From NCBI GenBank assembly GCA_045593065.1, contig JAZNVZ010000007.1, forward strand, positions 89,724 through 153,723: a stretch of DNA of 64,000 bases. Reading direction: 5' to 3'. The notes beneath the pieces were generated by a model that worked only from the letters and a program-made list of their open reading frames with translations, did no database searches and had not been told where the DNA came from. Shown piece by piece: positions 10,981 through 48,585 of the stretch. The first letter of the stretch is position 1; every line of letters starts with the position of its first letter. Position numbers and translations under genes: made by a program. The stretch comes from Candidatus Enterousia sp. Its GTDB lineage: Bacteria; Pseudomonadota; Alphaproteobacteria; Rs-D84.

Positions 10981-12429
10981 CTAGAATGAATATTTTACAC
11001 CCAAATGCAAGCCAAAAGAACGCCAGGTCGCTTCTTTTAATGCGTCTGTTACGTGTTCTGTGGATGCGGGGTATCTTGTTGCAACAATATCATAATCATT
11101 GTTACCAACGGGCACCTCGGTATATTCGGTATATTCTGCCCAATAAATTTCGCCACCAATTTTTCCAACATGGAAATAATTTGTATCGGCCTTGATTGAT
11201 AAATGTAATCTGTCAGACAATTTCAAATCATATTCCATTTCCAATGAATATGCCAATGCACCGTTGTCGCCTTCGTCCAAGAAACTGGGGTTTTGTTGCC
11301 AATCTGTACGATTTGGCCATATACCTTCGGATGAATATTTCGGCATACTGATTTGACCATAGAAACGCAATTTATCGGTCAATGTCATTTGTTTTTCAAT
11401 TTCTAATCCAATATAAAATCCAGACCATGTTGTGTTATATTCATGCGTTTTCCCAGATACCAAAATTGGGCCATCACCACCAATTACAACACATTCGTCT
11501 GGGCCTACACCCCATGGCACATAAGGATTCGCCGCATCATACACATAATCAGACACGGTTAATGAATTATCAACATTTACATTTGCAACCTGAATTTGTT
11601 CGGGTGACACACAGACCTGGTAATAATTATCAACATAGTTTTCGGCCTGGTCCACAGGAATTGAATAATAAACACTCAAATCATTCGGGTCGCCAAACAC
11701 ATAATTTCCGTCTGCGGTCATTAATGGAATATAGACACCTTGGTTTGGATAATAATGATTACCCATTTCCAAATTATGTTTGAATATTTCGTATCCAATA
11801 ATTGGGGTCAATTTCCAACCAGCGATACTCCAAATATTTCGTGCACCAACACCAAAACGCATGTGATGACTTTCGCCACTTTGGTCGCCAACAGAAATTG
11901 TAAATATACCATCGTTTGGTCTGGAATCATCATACGGTCGCAAATCATAATCCATCGACAAACCCCCAGATGACATCTTGCCGTATGTATATTCGCCAAA
12001 TGCAGTTAAATCAAAATTACGCACAGTAAAATTATAACGACCACCAACCTGGAATTCGTTAAACATCATGTCGTCCCATTCCAGAACAGAATTAACACTG
12101 GTGGTAAATTCAAAATCTGCGAAACGGCGGTTATACCCACCATACACATAAAAACCGTTATTGGTCGCCGCCGGTTGTGCAATTCCGTTCGCCGTTACCA
12201 TACCCGCATAACCGGGAACACTTGTACCTTTTGGAACGCGGTAAGAGTATGTATTGGAAGAAACAACCTGTTTGTTGGTCGGCAAATAACTGGCTTGGGA
12301 CACATTTTGATAATTCGAACGCGCCACAGAACCGTAATTTTGATAATAAGGCGGCACCCCTTCGTTGCTGGCCAACGCGGGCGATACGGCGCAGATTCCC
12401 AATAAAAATGCAATACTATCCTTCCTCAT
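10981..12429 (-). CDS. outer membrane beta-barrel protein (Tyr/Gly-rich)
   Basis: Signal peptide MRKDSIAFLLGICAVSPALA. Alternating hydrophobic beta-strand pattern. C-terminus ...LGVKYSF ends in an aromatic residue. Confidence 0.55.
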   Translation of the reverse strand: MRKDSIAFLLGICAVSPALASNEGVPPYYQNYGSVARSNYQNVSQASYLPTNKQVVSSNTYSYRVPKGTSVPGYAGMVTANGIAQPAATNNGFYVYGGYNRRFADFEFTTSVNSVLEWDDMMFNEFQVGGRYNFTVRNFDLTAFGEYTYGKMSSGGLSMDYDLRPYDDSRPNDGIFTISVGDQSGESHHMRFGVGARNIWSIAGWKLTPIIGYEIFKHNLEMGNHYYPNQGVYIPLMTADGNYVFGDPNDLSVYYSIPVDQAENYVDNYYQVCVSPEQIQVANVNVDNSLTVSDYVYDAANPYVPWGVGPDECVVIGGDGPILVSGKTHEYNTTWSGFYIGLEIEKQMTLTDKLRFYGQISMPKYSSEGIWPNRTDWQQNPSFLDEGDNGALAYSLEMEYDLKLSDRLHLSIKADTNYFHVGKIGGEIYWAEYTEYTEVPVGNNDYDIVATRYPASTEHVTDALKEATWRSFGLHLGVKYSF

Positions 12430-19036: not shown

Positions 19037-19480
19037 TTATATAATTAAATTTGGGCGGGCAGCGCGCAGGTTTTCCAGTGATTTTTCTTGCACGCGTTTG
19101 AATTCGTCCGCATTCCAGATTTGAAAACTGTTCCCACGGCCGACAAACAATGCCGTATCCACTATGCCGGCATGCGCCAGTAAATCATTCGGGATAACAA
19201 TTCGCCCAGTTACATCAAATGCCAGTGGACGCGCATCAGCAAATAACATTGCAGACAAATCATCGCGTGCACTGTCAAAAACGCCCATTTTATCGGTCGC
19301 CGCCGCCAAAGATTCCATACGCGACATCGACAGTCCTTCGATACATTTATGTGTGAAAGAACGATACAAAACAACACCTGCAAATCGTTCATCGTTTAAC
19401 GAATTGCGAAAGGAAGCCGGCACAGAAATACGGCCTTTGCTGTCCAAACGATTTTCATAAGACGAGAGAAACAATGACAT
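19037..19480 (-). CDS. mraZ: transcriptional regulator MraZ (orphan, not followed by rsmH/dcw genes)
   Basis: Two MraZ repeats: DSKGRISVPASFR in the first and TGRIVIPNDLLAHAGI...FQIWNADEF in the second. Confidence 0.8.
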   Translation of the reverse strand: MSLFLSSYENRLDSKGRISVPASFRNSLNDERFAGVVLYRSFTHKCIEGLSMSRMESLAAATDKMGVFDSARDDLSAMLFADARPLAFDVTGRIVIPNDLLAHAGIVDTALFVGRGNSFQIWNADEFKRVQEKSLENLRAARPNLII

Positions 19481-33868: not shown

Positions 33869-34567
33869 ATGGGGAGGAAACCTTTGCAAGAACGCATAGA
33901 ACCGCCAATTTTAATGTCTCGATTAATGGCTTTTGTTATGGCAACGGCGGCGGTTGTGCTGGTTGTGTTGTTGATTACATTGGATAAAATGTTTCCATTA
34001 AATCGGCCACAGATATTCTTTTTAACAACCCAGGGTATTAATGACAAAGAAATAACTTTAACACAAATGCCCGAAGATTTAGATGGATATAAACGCCAGT
34101 TTATACGGGAATATATACGATATCGAAATGAAATTATCCCAAATATTTCCATTATGCGGGCCAGATGGGCGCCTACGCCAAATGGAATTATTAAATCTCG
34201 TTCAACTGATGCAATATTTGGTAATTTTGCCGATACTGAAATGGTCGCAATCATTCGTCAGGGCGATTTAGATGAACCGTTAACGATTTCTTGCGATGTT
34301 GAATTTCCTGCAAAAAACGCTGTCGTATCCAAGGTTGGCGAACCAAACACATATGTTGCTAGTTTTGATTATGTTTGCGAATATGGCGATTTGGCACCCC
34401 AGAAATATGTTCAAAAATACCAAATAATTGTAAAATTAGAATCAACAGAAAAAACGGCTATAAAATGGGCTGAACGCATGGAAAACCCATTGGGGTTCCG
34501 TGTGAGTGGATATACAGTGGCAAATGGACAAAGCGACCCTTTGAACTGGACCCAAAACGAAGAATAA
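33869..34567 (+). CDS. virB8: VirB8-like type IV secretion protein (bitopic, NTF2-like periplasmic domain)
   Basis: Size (~225 aa), a single N-proximal TM (LMAFVMATAAVVLVVLLITL), and a C-terminal NPLGFRVSGYTV motif matching the VirB8 NPLGFQVTSYR signature. The start is ambiguous: ATG at 33869, TTG at 33884 after GGAGGA, or ATG at 33914. Confidence 0.6.
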   Translation: MGRKPLQERIEPPILMSRLMAFVMATAAVVLVVLLITLDKMFPLNRPQIFFLTTQGINDKEITLTQMPEDLDGYKRQFIREYIRYRNEIIPNISIMRARWAPTPNGIIKSRSTDAIFGNFADTEMVAIIRQGDLDEPLTISCDVEFPAKNAVVSKVGEPNTYVASFDYVCEYGDLAPQKYVQKYQIIVKLESTEKTAIKWAERMENPLGFRVSGYTVANGQSDPLNWTQNEE

Positions 34568-34589
34568 AAATAAAAAAGGAAGGAAGAAA

Positions 34590-36101
34590 ATGTTAAAAGT
34601 GTTTAAATTTAGCGGTTTGATGTGCGCACTGATGTTTTCTGTGGTAAATATTGCGTTTGGCGCCCAAAAGGCATGGGAAAACCCAAATGCAAACATGACC
34701 GCGGGCAGTGTTAAACCTGGGTATGCACAGTTGGCGTGGGCCCCTGGAACCGTATTGCCATTAAAATTGCGTTCTGGGATGGTAACAATGGTGTCTTTAC
34801 CAAACGGTGAACAAATTGCTGATGCAGTTATTGGCGATACTAGCGCGTTTGACATCAATACTACCCAGGGCGATAGAATTTTATATATTACACCCGCTAG
34901 TGACAATACCGAAAACGACACAAATTTAATTGTGTTGGGACAATCTGGAAATAAATACATATTCTACTTAAAGAGCTCTGGGCTTGAAGATGATGAAATT
35001 GCATATTCCCAGGTTGATGTCGTTTTGGACAATGGCGCATCGTTGGCGGGCGCAAATATTGCATCTGGGGCCAGAACATCTGGGGGCATGAATTCAATAT
35101 TTAGAAAATCTGCATCAACCAGCAGTACCCTTGGCGTTGATGGCGAAGATTATGCCTGGATAAAATCTATGAAAATTGACCCGTCTGAATTTAGATTTGA
35201 TTTGGATATATTTGTTCCAAATCCAGACGATTATGTAATTGCGCCTGAACGCGTATGGCGCGACAAGATATTCACATATATCGATTTCGGCGATAAAGTT
35301 ATCGCGATGACACAACGCCCCGTGGTATCATTGATGGTCGAAGGTGGCGAATCCCCCGTGGGATTTCGTACAGATGGTCAAGACGGACGCTTATTAATTG
35401 TCGAGGCCGTTGGCGATATGGTTTTGCGCAGCGGTCAACGTATTGTTTGCATTAAAAAACGCGAAAAACCTTTCTTGATTGCAGATACGGCATCTGTAAT
35501 GGCATTGGCCGAGGCAAATGTAGCACAAAGTATGATGTCTGGGCAATCGTTGAACAATATTGCGTATAATGCGGATATGTCGGCGGTAAATGCATCTGTG
35601 ATGGATTACAGTGCGACACCAATGTATATGTCCAACACCCCAGATACAACAGGTACTGGTGTATATGTGCCTGCGGGTTATTCTATGACCCCAGATACGC
35701 AAATGTACGGTAATTCCGGGGCATATATGATTCCAACAAAACGCGAAACCGCCGGGTCATATTTGCCACAATCAAATATACCACTGATTACATCTAATCA
35801 ATCAGGGGTTGCAGTTGAATTAGCATCCGATACAAAAATGAAACCGTTGGATGATTATTGGTCTGAATTATTGGTGAAATTCAGTGGCGATGGTGGCAAT
35901 GGGTTGTTGACACCATATCAAAACAAGGTTTTCTTTGCCGTAGATTCCCAAGGTGTTGGGGATTTGGGCGCGACATCAACAACATCTAAATTGTATCGTT
36001 TGCGCATTGGACCAATCGCGGATGTGGATACTGCGCAAACATTGTGCGACAAACTGATGAAATTCCAGGTTTCAGGATGTCGTGTGGTTAGAATTCAGTA
36101 A
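34590..36101 (+). CDS. virB9: VirB9/CagX/TrbG-like protein with extra Ser/Thr/Met-rich region and C-terminal SPOR-like domain
   Basis: Signal peptide. Residues ~190-290 (KIFTYIDFGDKVIAMTQRPVVSLMVEGGESPVGFRTDGQDGRLLIVEAVGDMVLRSGQRIVCIKKR) match the VirB9 C-terminal (CagX-type) domain. The last ~70 aa (LYRLRIGPIADVDTAQTLCDKL...GCRVVRI) resemble a SPOR domain. Confidence 0.6.
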   Translation: MLKVFKFSGLMCALMFSVVNIAFGAQKAWENPNANMTAGSVKPGYAQLAWAPGTVLPLKLRSGMVTMVSLPNGEQIADAVIGDTSAFDINTTQGDRILYITPASDNTENDTNLIVLGQSGNKYIFYLKSSGLEDDEIAYSQVDVVLDNGASLAGANIASGARTSGGMNSIFRKSASTSSTLGVDGEDYAWIKSMKIDPSEFRFDLDIFVPNPDDYVIAPERVWRDKIFTYIDFGDKVIAMTQRPVVSLMVEGGESPVGFRTDGQDGRLLIVEAVGDMVLRSGQRIVCIKKREKPFLIADTASVMALAEANVAQSMMSGQSLNNIAYNADMSAVNASVMDYSATPMYMSNTPDTTGTGVYVPAGYSMTPDTQMYGNSGAYMIPTKRETAGSYLPQSNIPLITSNQSGVAVELASDTKMKPLDDYWSELLVKFSGDGGNGLLTPYQNKVFFAVDSQGVGDLGATSTTSKLYRLRIGPIADVDTAQTLCDKLMKFQVSGCRVVRIQ

Positions 36102-36134
36102 TATGTTATAAACAAAAACAATGGGTAAAGTGTT

Positions 36135-38582
36135 ATGGCAAACACAATAAAAGAAAAAATTAAAGAAACATTTTATGATACCCCTGTGGCAATTCGTTGG
36201 ATGCTGTTGGGTGCGGCTTTTATTGTCGTGTTGATATTAATATCACTGGTAATCAACAAACCAAAACACCAAAATAAAATCGTATCTGCTGATAAAAATG
36301 TTAATTTAATTATCAATCCAGATTCTGCTGAAATGTTGGCGATTCCTGTGGGCGGCAAAGAATCCAGGGTATTTAACATCAAATCAACTGATGCCGTTGT
36401 TATTGATTCTGTCAAAATCCAAGATTCTGTTGACGGTTTTTCTATATTAAACGCATGTCAAGGTGATGCAGGGTCGATTAATCAAAACATTGGATGTAAA
36501 ATAACCGCGGTGTTTGCACCCGCAAACGCAAACATTTCGGGGCAAGTCAAACTGATTATCACATGGCACGACAGCGAAGATTTAGGCGATTTAAACAAAC
36601 GCACAGACACAATAAATGTAAATGTGGGTGTCAAAGCCGACCCAGAACCAATTAATATACAACCGTCAAAACCGGCGGTATTACCTGAACCAGAACCGGA
36701 ACCCGAATTGGAACCGGAACCGGAATTTGAACCAGAACCCGAACCCGCACCGGTTGGAACGAAACCTGTTTTAGAAAAACCTGCGCCTGTAGAAAAATCT
36801 GCATCTGCGCGGAAACGCGTGGAAAGATGTTCCGATTTTGCTATGCCAGGATACAGTAATGCCGGCGCGCAAATTGGTTGGATAAAACCAAATGCGGGAC
36901 GTTATGAATTTCACCCTTTTTCCGACAAAGAATGCAATAAACCCACAGGAATTTACAATCCAAATACAGGTATAATTACCAGTATCGACAGCGGTAAAAA
37001 AATTGGAACAGACGCAGATCATGTGGCCAAAAATGTGGATTTGACGGTTGTACCAGCATTAACATCAAAACCAAAAACCACTGGGACAAGTGCATCGACC
37101 GGCACCCCACGCACAGTTGGAAAATCTCAAAATTTAAAAAACGAATTTGCCACAGAACCCGGAATGCACTTGATACAAAAAACAATAAAAGAAGAAACAT
37201 TAAAGGGTTCTGCAGATACGACAGAGGCGGTAATCAATTCACGCCCGTACGACAGAACATTTATATTGCGTCAATTTAAACCAATTCCTGCAACAATAGT
37301 GTCCGAGGTTCGCGCTGACCCATCTGTGTACGGATGTAATAACAAGGATGCCAATGGCAGTTGCGATGGTGGCAGTGGCATTCCTGTCCGCGCAACGGTC
37401 GACAGAAATGTTTATTCTGACAATGGACGCACAATTATCATTCCCACAGGCACATTGTTAATGGGGTATTTAACTGGGGATTTACCGGGACCATATAAAA
37501 CCATTGGTCGTATGCAAATCAAATGGTATCAATTTATTCGTCCAGATGGTGTGGAATTTAATTTTAGCAGTAATGACCAAGACCCGTATTCTGCCGATTC
37601 CCAAGGGCGCGTTGGGGTTCCCGGATATGGCAGTACGGATTATATTGAACAAATGGTTATGCCTTTGTTAACCGCGATGGTTCCTGCGGCCGTTAATATG
37701 ATTGCGCCAATCGCTGACACATTCGTTAATCAAATCGATTTAGATAACAATACTGTTGTGCAATCCGGCAAGGTGCGTTCATCAGAATTAGCCAAGAACG
37801 AGGTTATAACCGCGTGGAATCAGGTTGCACAAAAATTAATCGTTGATGCATTAGATAACACAGTGCCACCATTTTCAATCGCTGCGGGCACCCGTATTAC
37901 CGTATATTCGCCTGTGGATTTAATCGCCACATGCGACAAAACAGAAAACGCTGGCAAAAAATGTGCATTTGAAACTTATAACGCCAATCCACGCCGTCCT
38001 TGGAAAGGTTTAAAAGAGCAAGTAAAGGTGGATTGGAACGATTCATCATGGACAGGGCAAGTGCGTTCGTTTAATCTAGACCGGTTTTGTACAGGTGATG
38101 CCAGCAGCGGCAAAAGAACCGCAGATAACACCCAGGCAGCCGAAATTTCCGCCGCAGGGTATGATTACAGAACCGTATTGGCATATTGCCAATCCCAAAA
38201 TTATCAGGCAAAAAACCAGGCAAAATACGATGCGTATTATCAAAATCTGACCGCTAATGCCAAGAATACGAATAAGGTCGAAGTAAATGAAAATGATGGA
38301 AAACTTTCTGTCAAATATAACGACGAATTTAATAAAAATGTTCTGGGGTTGGAATACGAAACTGATGAAGAGGGAAATGAAACAGGTCTTATAAAGAATC
38401 CATTTGAAAAATCTTCGTCTGTGCCTGCAACAGAATCTGTGGGCAGTTTGGATTGCGATGGCACGGCACCTGATGCAAATGGATGTTGCCCTGGGGAAAC
38501 ATATACCGATATGGGCGACCAAGGATTTAACTGTTGCCCTGCGGGCGGCGGCGATTGTTTCCCACCGTTAAATGTAAATTAA
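36135..38582 (+). CDS. virB10: VirB10-like protein (815 aa) with (PE)n repeat and long Cys-rich C-terminal extension
   Basis: N-terminal cytoplasmic segment plus TM (WMLLGAAFIVVLILISLVI). Pro-rich PEPEPEPELEPEPEFEPEPEPAP. VirB10 barrel-domain motif GRTIIIPTGTLLMGYLTGDLPG. About 230 extra C-terminal residues end in DCDGTAPDANGCCPGETY...NCCPAGGGDCFPP. Confidence 0.65.
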   Translation: MANTIKEKIKETFYDTPVAIRWMLLGAAFIVVLILISLVINKPKHQNKIVSADKNVNLIINPDSAEMLAIPVGGKESRVFNIKSTDAVVIDSVKIQDSVDGFSILNACQGDAGSINQNIGCKITAVFAPANANISGQVKLIITWHDSEDLGDLNKRTDTINVNVGVKADPEPINIQPSKPAVLPEPEPEPELEPEPEFEPEPEPAPVGTKPVLEKPAPVEKSASARKRVERCSDFAMPGYSNAGAQIGWIKPNAGRYEFHPFSDKECNKPTGIYNPNTGIITSIDSGKKIGTDADHVAKNVDLTVVPALTSKPKTTGTSASTGTPRTVGKSQNLKNEFATEPGMHLIQKTIKEETLKGSADTTEAVINSRPYDRTFILRQFKPIPATIVSEVRADPSVYGCNNKDANGSCDGGSGIPVRATVDRNVYSDNGRTIIIPTGTLLMGYLTGDLPGPYKTIGRMQIKWYQFIRPDGVEFNFSSNDQDPYSADSQGRVGVPGYGSTDYIEQMVMPLLTAMVPAAVNMIAPIADTFVNQIDLDNNTVVQSGKVRSSELAKNEVITAWNQVAQKLIVDALDNTVPPFSIAAGTRITVYSPVDLIATCDKTENAGKKCAFETYNANPRRPWKGLKEQVKVDWNDSSWTGQVRSFNLDRFCTGDASSGKRTADNTQAAEISAAGYDYRTVLAYCQSQNYQAKNQAKYDAYYQNLTANAKNTNKVEVNENDGKLSVKYNDEFNKNVLGLEYETDEEGNETGLIKNPFEKSSSVPATESVGSLDCDGTAPDANGCCPGETYTDMGDQGFNCCPAGGGDCFPPLNVN

Positions 38583-45812: not shown

Positions 45813-46042
45813 TATTTTTCCTTTTTACTTTTCACCATATAAAACCAAAATATACCGCCTAGAACCACGATTGTGATGATTAAATGCGAAATCTTAAATT
45901 CATTATCAGGGTAATCAATTATATACCACAAAAAAAACACCAGTAAAATAAAACATACAAATATTTTTAATGGTCTGCGTTTATTTACCGTTAAAAAATT
46001 AGACAACCACCGAGAAAGCCATGTTTCGTTTTGTTGTACCAT
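45812..46042 (-). CDS. small membrane protein (76 aa), hypothetical
   Basis: Two predicted TM helices; overlaps the yidC start by 1 nt. No Cys residues, so it does not match YidD. Confidence 0.35.
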   Translation of the reverse strand: MVQQNETWLSRWLSNFLTVNKRRPLKIFVCFILLVFFLWYIIDYPDNEFKISHLIITIVVLGGIFWFYMVKSKKEK

Positions 46043-46054
46043 TGTTTTTACCTT

Positions 46055-46561
46055 TTACTTTTTACGAAATATAGAATTTATTATAAACAAACCGACACCG
46101 ATTACAATAAATATATCGGCAACATTAAATGCAGGCCAATGAATATCGCCCACATGAAAATCCAAGAAATCAATTACCGCACCGAAACGAATCCTGTCGA
46201 TTAAATTACCCAATGCACCACCGATGATAAATGCCAAAGGCAGTTTTTCGTGTGTGCCTGCGCGCCTGAACATGTAATAGAATAAAAAACCAATCAATGC
46301 AGCCGTTGCCACAATAATAATCAACGGATATAATTCCCCAAACGAACGAAACAACGAAAACGAAGCCCCAGGATTCCATGTAAACACAATATTAAACCAA
46401 TTTGTTATATGCGACATAATATACGGAAACCCAACCACAGACCACGCATTTCCATAAAACGGCACACCACCCGTTATGAGATATAACAACACAGATTTTG
46501 CGATTTGGTCCAATAACACAACCCCAAAAATCACAGATAAATATTTAAGTACATTTTTCAT
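46055..46561 (-). CDS. lspA: lipoprotein signal peptidase II
   Basis: Four TM helices; NPGASFSLF; FNVADIFIVIGVGLFI. Confidence 0.85.
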   Translation of the reverse strand: MKNVLKYLSVIFGVVLLDQIAKSVLLYLITGGVPFYGNAWSVVGFPYIMSHITNWFNIVFTWNPGASFSLFRSFGELYPLIIIVATAALIGFLFYYMFRRAGTHEKLPLAFIIGGALGNLIDRIRFGAVIDFLDFHVGDIHWPAFNVADIFIVIGVGLFIINSIFRKK

Positions 46562-46730
46562 ATTTTACCTTTTACATTACGCATTGGAAATATAGCAATA
46601 TGCAACAGTAAAATCAAATGAAAATACATAGACAAAAATTATGGTGGCGGACCAACGAAGTTGGTGGGGTAATTGTGAAATGCTCTAAACTGATACTGTG
46701 TGTAATTGAATGATGAATTATAAATTAAAC

Positions 46731-47100
46731 TGCCCCGTCATACCGCCACAGTTCGTATAGTCGTCATACCGCGGTTTCGGGCCCCGCCCTGCGGCGGGGT
46801 GACGATTCTGTGGGGATTAACAGTCCCGTCATACCGCGGGCGCGCGGTATCCAGTCCGCCATAGGCGGACTTGTGTAATAAGTGAGCAAGTTGGTGCGTT
46901 GCACCAACTGGATTCCGGCATGCGCCGGAATGACGATTGTGTGGGAATTAACAGTCCCGTCATACCGCCACAGTTCGTATATCGTCATACCGCCGTAGGG
47001 CGGTATCCAGTTTTGCGGAACGCAAAACTTGTGTCATTTTGCTTTATTACACAAGTTGGCGCATTGCGCCAACTGGGCCCCGCCCTGCGGCGGGGTGACG
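46731..47100. repeat. array of hairpin-forming intergenic repeat modules (REP/RPE-like), about two composite units
   Basis: Module R1 is a GC hairpin followed by TGACGATT(c/g)TGTGGG(g/a)ATTAACAGTCCCGTCATACCGC. Copies lie at 46781-46838 and 46913-46968, with a third truncated copy at 47077-47100. Module R2 is GGTATCCAG followed by a hairpin, TTGTGT and a second hairpin. Copies lie at 46849-46915 and 46999-47075. CCCGTCATACCGCCACAGTTCGTATA is repeated at 46734 and 46955. Confidence 0.7.
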
Positions 47101-47985
47101 TTATTGCATCAATCGCATGCAATGCGTGCCATTGCCATTACAGAATTTTGTAAATGCACCTATCTTGCATTGTCTTATACTGGTTGCGCCTGGCTCGCCC
47201 TGAAAGGTTGGGTCGTGTATTGCTGTTGACTCAGGCGTAGTAACAACTGTCAGCATGCCGGCGGGACACTTGGTACAACCCGCGTAAGGATCGCCATAGG
47301 TATTTCCCTTGCACACACATTCATTATTACCCCCGACAAAGGCGTAATCCCCGCACGAGCGACAGGTAACAACACCATTGGTGCCAATGGTTTTATACCT
47401 GCCACTGGGACACCCCACTGTTGCACTGGTTGCGCCAGCATTTTCACACCCGGTCCAATCATTGCCGCATGATTGACATGTAAATGTATTGTCGATTAAA
47501 CCACCATTTGCATTGGTTGTTTTATAATACCCTGATTGACATGTACAAGCATTAATATCGGTTGCACCTTGGGCACTGGTGGAATGTTCTGGACATTCGG
47601 TACATTCGCCGGCGCCGGTGTTTGCATCATACGAACTGCGGTAATAATTCATGGTGCATACCCACGGGCAATATGATAGACCAGTGGTATTATCGTCAGC
47701 AGGGTTAAAAACAGAGTTACCAGGGTGATCGGATGCGGTTTCTGCCCACGACCAAACACTATTATCATATGAACCACATTTTAGGCAGGAGCGTGAGTCG
47801 TTACCAGGGTTGTAGTAAAACGAAGCACATTGTGTACATTCTCCACCAAACATTGAACTGGATGCATTCCACTCCCACCCCGGACATACACAATCATTTT
47901 CGGGTGTGGACGACGTACACTCTGCATTTGCCATAAATGGCATAAATACCGCAATAATTAATAAAAATTTTAGTATTTTTTTCAT
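47101..47985 (-). CDS. secreted cysteine-rich repeat protein (GCC2_GCC3 / Giardia VSP-like CxxC repeats)
   Basis: Start at MKKILKFLLIIAVFMPFMANA with a GGGGAAGGGAA RBS (the track ORF starts 23 codons upstream). About 40 Cys arranged as repeated C-x2-C...G-x-Y(Y) units: GECTQCASFYY, CLKCGSYD, GECTECPEH, CTCQSGYY, TCQSCGNDW, TCRSCGDYAF, CTKCPAGM. Confidence 0.6.
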   Translation of the reverse strand: MKKILKFLLIIAVFMPFMANAECTSSTPENDCVCPGWEWNASSSMFGGECTQCASFYYNPGNDSRSCLKCGSYDNSVWSWAETASDHPGNSVFNPADDNTTGLSYCPWVCTMNYYRSSYDANTGAGECTECPEHSTSAQGATDINACTCQSGYYKTTNANGGLIDNTFTCQSCGNDWTGCENAGATSATVGCPSGRYKTIGTNGVVTCRSCGDYAFVGGNNECVCKGNTYGDPYAGCTKCPAGMLTVVTTPESTAIHDPTFQGEPGATSIRQCKIGAFTKFCNGNGTHCMRLMQ

Positions 47986-48103
47986 TTCCCTTCCCCTTTT
48001 TGACCTTGCCAAAACTTTACACCAAAAAAAAAAAACGCAAGATTTTTGTTGCAAAAAATATATTTTATGACAAAATGCAGGTATGTATATAAAGGAGCCC
48101 TAT

Positions 48104-48535
48104 ATGAAATTAAACACAACATACAATTTAAAACGCGGTGCACTGGTTGGATTATTGGCATTATTACCATTTGCCGCATGCAAAAAAGAACCTGTGGAGC
48201 CAGAACCAACACCAACACCGGTTACGCCCGCACAACCAACCACACCAAAGGTTTACACATTTGTGTATGATGGCGATGGGATTCCTGCGGATACGGCACG
48301 TGCACATTTAGATGTAGATACATTTTATGTTGTGCCAGTGCGCTCAACTTTATTTCAAACCATATCAAGCAATGGTATACATAATGCAAGAAATCATTTG
48401 CAAAGCATTATTGACATCAATCCAAAAACACGTGGCAAAGGCGATTTGATTACAATCTATGCCAGTGTTGAAGATTCCGCGTGGTTATCACAATTTGGTT
48501 ATAATGTAAAAAGGGAATACAGCAAATCCCGCTAA
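48104..48535 (+). CDS. lipoprotein with Pro/Thr/Glu-rich linker, hypothetical
   Basis: AAAGGAG RBS; MKLNTTYNLKRGALVGLLALLPFAAC lipobox; EPVEPEPTPTPVTPAQPTTP linker. Confidence 0.55.
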   Translation: MKLNTTYNLKRGALVGLLALLPFAACKKEPVEPEPTPTPVTPAQPTTPKVYTFVYDGDGIPADTARAHLDVDTFYVVPVRSTLFQTISSNGIHNARNHLQSIIDINPKTRGKGDLITIYASVEDSAWLSQFGYNVKREYSKSR

Positions 48536-48557
48536 AAAAAATATAAACTAATAAAAA

Positions 48558-48585
48558 TGCCCCAGACGGGGCATTTTTATTTTTC
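48558..48585. terminator. bidirectional terminator between lipoprotein gene and kefB
   Basis: TGCCCC-AGAC-GGGGCA hairpin followed by TTTTTATTTTT; A-run upstream. Confidence 0.65.

Follow-up and report, generated by a model that had tools for sequence, protein, structure and literature searches.

In the window analysed in this study (the whole stretch of 64,000 nucleotides, or 64 kb), an array of hairpins is bracketed by lspA (46055-46561, minus strand) and a gene for a secreted Cys-rich protein (47101-47985, minus strand), and it forms the immediate 3' flank of the Cys-rich gene on the minus strand. The host is an uncultured relative of Ca. Enterousia among the gut or rumen alphaproteobacteria, with genes for GapR and VirB8/9/10 present, and its LpxD shares 72% identity with the LpxD of a Ca. 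Enterousia MAG. ComEC is also encoded in the window.

The array and the Cys-rich gene lie in a strain-specific segment of ~1.95 kb, whose second gene is a lipoprotein-like ORF. In the sister strains (four contigs, L001-L004), lspA is ~100 bp from a Na+/H+ exchanger gene, and related strains have a 46-nt terminator-like spacer where the window has the ~1.95-kb segment. When the two genes of the segment were searched against PHROGs and Pfam, no mobile-element function was found, only the Ephrin_rec_like repeats in the Cys-rich protein. The lipoprotein-like ORF has no Pfam family and no homologue among the loci compared; a relationship with the 143-aa ORF beside a similar hairpin dimer in Ca. Enterousia onthequi (L065) was considered and rejected, the two ORFs being unrelated. 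The genes and sites around the array were as follows.

46589-46617, minus strand: promoter-like site of lspA (TTGATT-17-TATATT, with preceding TG), in DNA common to strains without the array
46626-48576, no strand: strain-specific segment of ~1.95 kb holding the array, the Cys-rich gene and the lipoprotein-like ORF; its junctions were read
47101-47985, minus strand: gene for the secreted Cys-rich protein, 294 aa, with 26 Cys, a signal peptide and an Ephrin_rec_like repeat
48104-48535, plus strand: lipoprotein-like ORF, 143 aa, with a lipobox-like AAC within LLPFAACKK

Anatomy of the array

The first-pass annotation had read the array as about two copies of a composite ~180-bp unit made of two modules. 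Tandem Repeats Finder detected no tandem repeat at the array, and this reading was therefore dropped; the spacings were 91, 131, 156, 165 and 222 bp. Both modules straddle the real units. These are palindromic dimers, 109 and 118 bp long, together with spacers; module 1 corresponds to a right-hand hairpin, the spacer S and the head of the following unit. The array is instead a mosaic in which three dimers (one of them, E1, having lost its interior) are combined with two decayed single REPs and a 22-nt spacer. Its order is S0-A1-E1-S1-E2-S2-A2-E3, where E stands for a dimer, A for a decayed single REP and S for the 22-nt spacer ATTSTGTGGGRATTAACAGTCC, which is present at 46805-46826 and 46936-46957. 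The parts of the array, and a small hairpin that lies to its left, are listed below.

46640-46678, plus strand: small hairpin CCAAC-GAA-GTTGG (46651-46663), then the 13-mer GGGGTAATTGTGA (46666-46678)
46722-46735, plus strand: S0, a partial copy of the spacer tail, AATTAAACTGCC, compare ATTAACAGTCC; from direct reading and repeat family D1
46736-46759, plus strand: A1, decayed single CGTC REP, CGTC-ATACCGCC-ACAG-TTCGTATA, in which the second arm is now unpaired
46762-46804, no strand: E1, internally deleted HH dimer, with the left REP half CGTCATACCGCGG fused to an intact right REP
46781-46804, minus strand: intact right REP of E1, CGTC-ACCCCGCC-GCAG-GGCGGGGC
46805-46826, plus strand: S1, 22-nt spacer ATTCTGTGGGGATTAACAGTCC, between the right REP tag and the next left REP tag
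46827-46935, no strand: E2, complete HH dimer, 109 nt, covariance model score 115.5 bits
46827-46850, plus strand: left REP of E2 (REP-L)
46853-46871: spacer hairpin a of E2
46869-46891: degenerate central hairpin of E2
46889-46909: spacer hairpin b of E2
46912-46935, minus strand: right REP of E2 (REP-R)
46936-46957, plus strand: S2, 22-nt spacer ATTGTGTGGGAATTAACAGTCC
46958-46981, plus strand: A2, second decayed single REP, again CGTC-ATACCGCC-ACAG-TTCGTATA, repeat family D1, 94% identity
46983-47100, no strand: E3, complete HH dimer, 118 nt, abutting the stop codon of the Cys-rich gene, covariance model score 130.8 bits
46983-47006, plus strand: left REP of E3 (REP-L)
47009-47029: spacer hairpin a of E3
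47026-47057: central hairpin of E3
47054-47074: spacer hairpin b of E3
47077-47100, minus strand: right REP of E3 (REP-R)

The two complete palindromic dimers, E2 (109 bp) and E3 (118 bp), carry their tags on the outside, and their spacers are 61 and 70 nt long. Their layout can be written as CGTC-AT-stem-loop-stem-AT-CCAGT / AGT-stem-loop-stem-ACT / ACTTGTGT...ACACAAGT / AGT-stem-loop-stem-ACT / ACTGG-AT-stem-loop-stem-AT-GACG. The spacer of an HH dimer is thus an AGT-stem-loop-ACT hairpin, then the central ACTTGTGT/ACACAAGT hairpin, then a second AGT-stem-loop-ACT hairpin. E3 is placed between the stop codon of the Cys-rich gene and A2.

The individual hairpins in the first-pass annotation proved to be real. 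CCCCGCC-CTGC-GGCGGGG is present at 46782-46799 and 47078-47095, and (A)TTCCGGC-ATGC-GCCGGAA(T) at 46912-46931. The spacer hairpins AGTCCGCC-ATA-GGCGGACT (46853-46871), AGTTGGTGC-GTT-GCACCAACT (46889-46909) and AGTTGGCGC-ATT-GCGCCAACT (47054-47074) were also found as described, the last with its paired T>C / A>G change. The AGTTTTGCG/CGCAAAACT hairpin exists at 47009-47029, but its loop is GAA, and the GAAC given for it was one base off. The motif that had been noticed near 46650, CCAACGAAGTTGG, is the small hairpin at 46651-46663.

Hairpins of this kind are concentrated at the array, much more strongly than chance would allow. Nine of the 19 distinct perfect GC-rich hairpins of at least 7 bp in the 64-kb window lie inside 46782-47095, and a design scan of the same window located five intact CGTC REP units, all within 46781-47100 and none elsewhere. 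The 11-mer CGTCATACCGC occurs exactly five times, always in the array; with one mismatch allowed, there were 6 matches against 0.85 expected. Compared with shuffles, the folding of a 391-nt stretch gave z = -8.9 as RNA and z = -10.5 as DNA.

Other copies and conservation of the stems

Other copies were searched with a covariance model (R1) built from four dimers. Within the 64-kb window, R1 found full-length dimers at the array locus only. Relatives with the full architecture were found in L033 (RUG14746), L065 (Ca. Enterousia onthequi) and L011 (RUG13256) and, after a metagenome scan, also in L126, L127 (three copies on one short contig), L128 and L130; R1 also matched L132/L133. Apart from the L133 copy, the full dimers in related rumen/gut alphaproteobacterial MAGs and metagenomes number eight. 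The exact 13-mer GGGGTAATTGTGA was found only at 46666 of the window, at 1341 of L033 and at 6311 of L065, each time 20-150 nt from a full dimer. A BLAST search of the array against plasmids gave no match.

The dimer at 19125-19233 of the metagenomic contig L133 differs from E2 by one loop base over 109 nt. This contig was reached via a paralogue of the Cys-rich protein and derives from the metagenome sample that also gave the sister-strain contig L001. The dimer locus lies between convergent genes and is flanked by S, A-like and E1-type modules, in an order unlike that of the array and with a switch at the shared head CGTCATACCGC. A third copy of spacer S adjoins the L133 dimer, and the left half of E1, CGTCATACCGCGGTTTCGGGCCCC, recurs at this second locus. 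In the sequence of this species covered here, two dimer-bearing loci and one isolated decayed REP were seen, and the remainder of the 64-kb window has none. Because there is a second locus in the same species and there are copies in other genomes and metagenomes, the repeat family is not locus-specific and appears to be dispersed, which answers the question, raised in the first-pass annotation, of whether the modules are unique to this place. The dispersed copies suggest that the elements are mobile.

A scan of a genome collection for one stem type matched at least 120 loci, among them many gut/rumen alphaproteobacterial MAGs with hairpin-ended palindromes. The pattern consisted of 17 bases with 5 gap lengths, and by our own estimate a few hundred chance matches are expected in 596 Gb, so that lone matches in unrelated phyla are no evidence. 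The six matches in Holdemania (L062) are in fact a CRISPR array. At the locus studied here, a CRISPR array was rejected: the units are inverted, unevenly spaced and divergent in sequence.

All ten dimers examined fold each of the five hairpins. In these ten dimers, the two spacer hairpins have more than 10 different stem sequences, which are always framed by AGT...ACT and have 3-nt loops. Across the 12 dimer loci, the stem sequences differ and Watson-Crick pairing is almost strictly kept. A model-fitted alignment of 23 rows (12 loci, both strands) was used for counting. The paired cells amounted to 96.7%, against 31-45% when the partners were slid, although the pairing counts are somewhat inflated because this alignment is fitted to the structure and includes both strands of palindromes. 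In the same structure-fitted alignment, 20 of the 42 pairs were changed on both sides, against 3-7 when slid. Because the 23-row alignment leans to the structure, a second test was run, anchored only on the tag and the AT ends and excluding the sequences used to fetch the loci. Here, 24 of the 45 REP hairpins, with 13 stem types, were fully paired, against 2.7 expected.

Between L033 and L128, a single clean compensatory double change, TCGCC...GGCGA vs TTGCC...GGCAA, separates the orthologous copies. The covariation that preserves the stems, on which the first-pass annotation had based its reading, holds once further copies are added. Single-sided changes of the G-U type were rare in the 23-row alignment (~14 of 931 cells) compared with 154 double changes. 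For this reason, we infer that complementarity is maintained at the DNA level, on both strands, and not in RNA alone.

Comparison with CGTC-tagged REPs

Studies have shown that the CGTC class of REPs occurs mainly in alphaproteobacteria and has a stem of 8-9 bp starting with AT and a loop of 4-5 nt (PMC3733652). Family CGTC-1 is defined by an unpaired CGTC (or TGTC/CCTC) tag, a stem that starts with AT, a 4-nt loop and a CCA tail (PMC3733652); its stem is 8 bp, and its loop is 4 nt, compared with 5 nt in families 2-4 (PMC3733652). CGTC REPs are mostly HH dimers with spacers of 20-100 bp, and often heterodimers; HH spacers with a stem-loop at each end have already been described (PMC3733652). 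The Neisseria dRS3 and the Rickettsia RPE-6 are CGTC-1 elements (Di Nocera, De Gregorio & Rocco 2013, PMC3733652).

The units of the array agree closely with this description. The CGTC tag is present in all five intact units, and three decayed units also start with CGTC. Three of the five stems are perfect 8-bp stems starting with AT, whereas the two CCCCGCC units start with AC, so that their stems have 7 bp and one mismatch, which on the other strand can be read as a G-T pair. The loops of the intact units are GGCG, GCAT, GTAG and, twice, GCAG. Four of the five units are followed by CCAG, and the unit in the deleted dimer E1 has CCGA. The array therefore shares with CGTC-1 (PMC3733652) the tag, the 8-bp stem, the 4-nt loop and the CCA tail, with the AT start in three of five units, as well as tag-outward HH dimers, conserved structured spacers and heterodimers whose partner stems differ. 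Both have an alphaproteobacterial host and no flanking transposase. The array is set apart by the following: its Enterousia-like host lineage is not described in PMC3733652; neither is the present spacer, with its two AGT...ACT hairpins and the ACTTGTGT/ACACAAGT hairpin; two of the five units start with AC (G-T on the other strand) and not with AT; and the elements are clustered, which is reportedly rare in the class outside Neisseria and Wolbachia. In our view, the hairpins are very probably CGTC-tagged REPs of family CGTC-1 that are clustered here as HH dimers with outward tags, an arrangement comparable to that of REPINs. A REP/RPE-like family of palindromic elements had been the leading candidate of the first-pass annotation, and the fit of the units to the published CGTC-1 definition bears it out. 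The array is real and structured, yet it is an ordinary example of its class.

One unit, ATTCCGGCATGCGCCGGAAT, nearly has the form of the Neisseria dRS3 (ATTCCC-N8-GGGAAT), itself a CGTC-1 REP. Rickettsia RPE-6 and RPE-4, which are CGTC REPs, share the tag and hairpin design with our units and likewise belong to alphaproteobacterial hosts with small genomes; however, many RPEs lie in frame within genes, whereas the array is intergenic, and the sequences are unrelated apart from the generic design. Like the REPINs of Pseudomonas and E. coli, which are mobilised by RAYT (Y1 HUH) transposases, the dimers are inverted REP doublets able to form one long hairpin, and they occur as dispersed near-identical copies with complementarity at the DNA level. 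Unlike REPINs, they carry the tag CGTC in place of GTAG, no RAYT was found, and the CGTC class has no known cognate enzyme. The CGTC-3 HH dimers of Agrobacterium tumefaciens also have a small stem-loop at each spacer end, with ~20-30 nt between them, but their stems are 9 bp, their loops 5 nt and their sequence different.

No dedicated transposase is known for the CGTC class (PMC3733652), and no update naming an enzyme for CGTC REPs was found in the later literature searched. In our data, Pfam hits over ~85 kb of the species included no transposase families; a RAYT or a GTAG-type tag was not encountered, the tag being CGTC and transposases being lacking among the Pfam hits over the same ~85 kb. 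The element family proposed in the first-pass annotation has been borne out, but the transposase it suggested looking for has not turned up in that ~85 kb. A 3.6-kb stretch of L057 bounded by two REPs was considered as a transposase carrier and rejected, as it holds core genes only (priA, transaldolase, xerC-like). A classical MITE was also considered. The dimers do end in inverted termini (CGTCAT...ATGACG), but no direct repeat is common to the sequences on either side of E1, E2, E3 and the copy in L133, and a parent IS was not found; the MITE reading was rejected because target-site duplications are lacking.

The array and the adjacent secreted-protein gene

Several other explanations of the array were weighed. 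That it is a purely local duplication of hairpin-rich intergenic sequence, with no element family behind it, would agree with the confinement of the motifs to the array locus within the 64-kb window and with the appearance of S0-A1-E1 and S2-A2-E3, which within the array resemble local duplications. This reading is refuted by another contig of the same species, on which the same modules flank a near-identical dimer, and the eight further full dimers in other genomes and metagenomes also speak against it; we give it practically no probability. A structured non-coding RNA gene (an sRNA or a cis-regulatory RNA whose fold is selected at the RNA level) could be argued from the strong fold (z = -8.9 as RNA) and the extensive covariation. 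However, the units are palindromic and both strands score, nearly all changes go from one Watson-Crick pair to another with few G-U intermediates, the copies occur at unrelated loci in varied module orders, and the conserved unpaired sequence consists of short tags only. An Rfam scan of 46000-47600 matched no family: its only hit was a microRNA model, mir-5132, with 23 bits against a gathering score of 100 (E = 0.8), a chance match. Because of the palindromy, the scoring of both strands, the varied loci and the Rfam result, a strand-specific RNA gene is extremely unlikely, and the ncRNA that the first-pass annotation had listed among its candidates is unsupported. The array might also be an attachment site, left when the 1.95-kb segment integrated site-specifically as a mobile island. 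It is near one edge of the strain-specific segment, and in Neisseria, dRS3 repeats are integration sites of filamentous prophages (PMC1797815). Nevertheless, there is no integrase, transposase or tRNA in or beside the segment, the other segment edge has no repeat, the array lies ~100 bp inside the segment edge, and the segment replaces 46 nt and is no clean insertion; a tRNA/tmRNA scan of 45-50 kb was negative. The junctions likewise show no exact insertion with REP halves at its ends. With integrase and tRNA genes absent and the far edge free of repeats, we judge an attachment site very improbable.

The remaining alternative concerns recombination, a recombination site having been the third candidate of the first-pass annotation. 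In Neisseria, NIME arrays, in which 20-bp dRS3 inverted repeats are separated by diverse RS units and dRS3 is targeted by a specific recombinase, have been proposed to promote exchange and variation of flanking surface-protein genes (PMC1797815). The array has a layout of the NIME type: 20-bp hairpins alternate with S, module A and dimer cores, and the modules are reshuffled between two loci. Both are mosaics of hairpins alternating with other short repeats, and the array adjoins a variable secreted-protein gene, as in Neisseria; it differs from the NIME arrays (PMC1797815) in being small (five intact units) and in another phylum, and no dRS3-targeting recombinase or prophage was seen. It may be that the array acts as a similar recombination substrate, through which the adjacent surface-protein gene is more readily gained, lost or exchanged, either by homologous recombination between arrays or by a recombinase recognising the REP hairpin. 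We regard such a role as possible but unlikely; it would be compatible with the elements also being REPs. In its favour, the array lies in a 1.95-kb segment that is missing from the sister strains. The Cys-rich protein is identical to P0001 and has the paralogues P0002 and P0003. The last 256 nt of its gene (47355-47100), which abut the array, share 92% identity with the end of the P0003 gene, whereas the rest has diverged and can be aligned only as protein (41% identity), nucleotide similarity being undetectable. Decayed REP module A follows both the window gene and the P0003 gene, and it is found 24 nt past the stop codon of the P0003 gene (L133 10780-10805) with 100% identity. Module order differs between the two loci, with switch points at CGTCATACCGC. 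Dimers adjoin genes for signal-peptide or Cys-rich proteins at five independent loci, although this is a raw count with no measured background rate. Between L033 and L128, the adjacent secreted protein is 58-62% identical, compared with ~80-90% for the flanking genes (read from translations). The presence of a ComEC gene in the window and the Neisseria dRS3/NIME precedent (PMC1797815) also agree with this reading. Against it, neither segment edge coincides with a REP: the first REP lies ~110 bp away from the left edge (46626), and there is none at the right edge. Nor does the empty site in L001 carry a REP; no recombinase is nearby, and P0004 (L136), a more distant homologue of the Cys-rich protein, has no REP downstream of its gene. 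A wider form of the idea is that CGTC-REP arrays, together with a conserved 3' gene end, serve as handles for the gain, loss or swap of cassettes outside Neisseria, the palindromy reflecting recognition of a DNA hairpin by the mobilising enzyme; this we hold to be distinctly doubtful.

The preferred reading, a cluster of CGTC-1 REPs, suggests the following mechanism. The elements would be DNA palindromes that are non-autonomous and largely selfish and that fold into hairpins when the DNA is single-stranded, and they would spread to new sites by means of a trans-acting enzyme. Arrays may then grow locally through duplication of a dimer plus spacer and through recombination at shared REP heads. 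An intrinsic terminator was rejected as an explanation of the array because T-runs are lacking: no GC hairpin followed by a T-run lies on the minus strand within it, and its sole terminator-like match is marginal and on the plus strand, at 47009. No canonical terminator was found between the Cys-rich gene and lspA; for this reason, the array is probably transcribed with the Cys-rich gene, as the 3' end of its mRNA. Other REPs have been reported to act as 3' hairpin barriers in transcripts (PMC3733652). By analogy with these, the hairpins, if transcribed, could be 3' barriers that stabilise the Cys-rich mRNA and damp read-through.

These results extend the known class of CGTC-tagged REPs, which includes dRS3 and RPE-6, to an uncultured alphaproteobacterial lineage of the animal gut, and the locus supplies a composite dimer that is cleanly delimited and in which the compensatory variation is unusually clear. 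Because no mobilising enzyme is known for the CGTC class, and the function of the class is not settled, this small-genome lineage could be a convenient place to search for that enzyme. It has dispersed copies that are nearly identical, modules that have been reshuffled, and arrays next to secreted-protein genes that vary between strains. The lineage could also be used to test the Neisseria idea that arrays promote exchange of adjacent surface-protein genes. If that idea held here, cassette exchange between loci and strains would yield surface-protein variation.

The strain-specific segment and its Cys-rich gene

A segment of ~1.95 kb (window 46626-48576), which carries the Cys-rich gene and a lipoprotein-like ORF along with the repeat array, is absent from four sister-strain contigs (L001-L004). 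In these contigs, lspA and the Na+/H+ exchanger gene are separated by only a 46-nt terminator-like spacer.

The product of the Cys-rich gene (P0001) belongs to a small family with two paralogues, P0002 and P0003. Over its final 256 nt (window 47100-47355), the gene shared 92% identity with the end of a paralogue from a different locus (L133 10502-10754, a second contig of the sample that gave L001), while the remainder was alignable with this paralogue only as protein, at 41%. The differences within the 92%-identical part were mostly amino-acid-changing. This pattern suggests recent gene conversion or cassette-like recombination within the P0001, P0002 and P0003 family.

A secreted Cys-rich protein also adjoins orthologous dimers in RUG14746 (L033 1436-3589) and in a locus from the metagenome scan (L128 1264-3687), and the two proteins shared just 58-62% identity. 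Between the same loci, the identity of the flanking MltA-like and RuvC genes was about 80-90% (judged by eye from printed translations), and that of the intergenic DNA was about 86-93%. This is reminiscent of the Neisseria NIME arrays, whose neighbouring genes are of lower identity.

Sequences accompanying or resembling the dimers

The 13-mer GGGGTAATTGTGA was found in the window and the collected comparison loci only within 20-150 nt of full-architecture dimers:
window 46666-46678, small hairpin on its 5' side
L033 1341-1353, small hairpin on its 5' side
L065 6311-6323 (Ca. Enterousia onthequi)
The L033 copy lies inside an 86-nt stretch that is absent from the orthologous L128 locus and has a GTAAT microrepeat at its bounds.

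A second small palindrome, about 40-50 nt in length and with the core CCCACAAAA...TTTTGYGGG, sits within the loop of a CGTC REP in related MAGs, and none was present in the window. It looks like a nested insertion targeting REP loops:
L127 766-808
L081 about 2090-2160
L112 7474-7591
L007, L026, L018 and L073, without coordinates

MAGs that carry the labels Barnesiella, Bacteroidales, Zetaproteobacteria and Alistipes also contained hairpins of the same design as those of the array (GTCAT-stem-loop-stem-ATCCAG), among them dimers reiterated in tandem at periods of about 115 and 84 bp:
L082 2755-3125
L044 5616-6017
L039 2575-2830
L006, L024, L029, L071 and L092, without coordinates
These labels may reflect a true cross-phylum spread of the class or contigs that were mis-binned. 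Six matches to the search pattern in Holdemania (L062 2270-2720) were rejected as a false positive of the scan, as they are repeat units (ATTTCAATCCACATACCGCTCGCGCGGTATGAC) of a CRISPR array with a period of about 66 bp, and their hairpin likeness is coincidental.

Reading frames and gene content

Two ORFs composed of REP sequence cross the array:
46764-46988, minus strand, 74 codons
46899-47153, plus strand, 84 codons
They are most likely not genes, and gene callers could annotate them. Elsewhere, the window encodes the following proteins:
55010-56998, ComEC (competence)
33869-38582, VirB8/VirB9/VirB10-type secretion proteins
10981-12429, Protochlamydia-type outer-membrane protein
These are traits of a host-associated, small-genome alphaproteobacterium.
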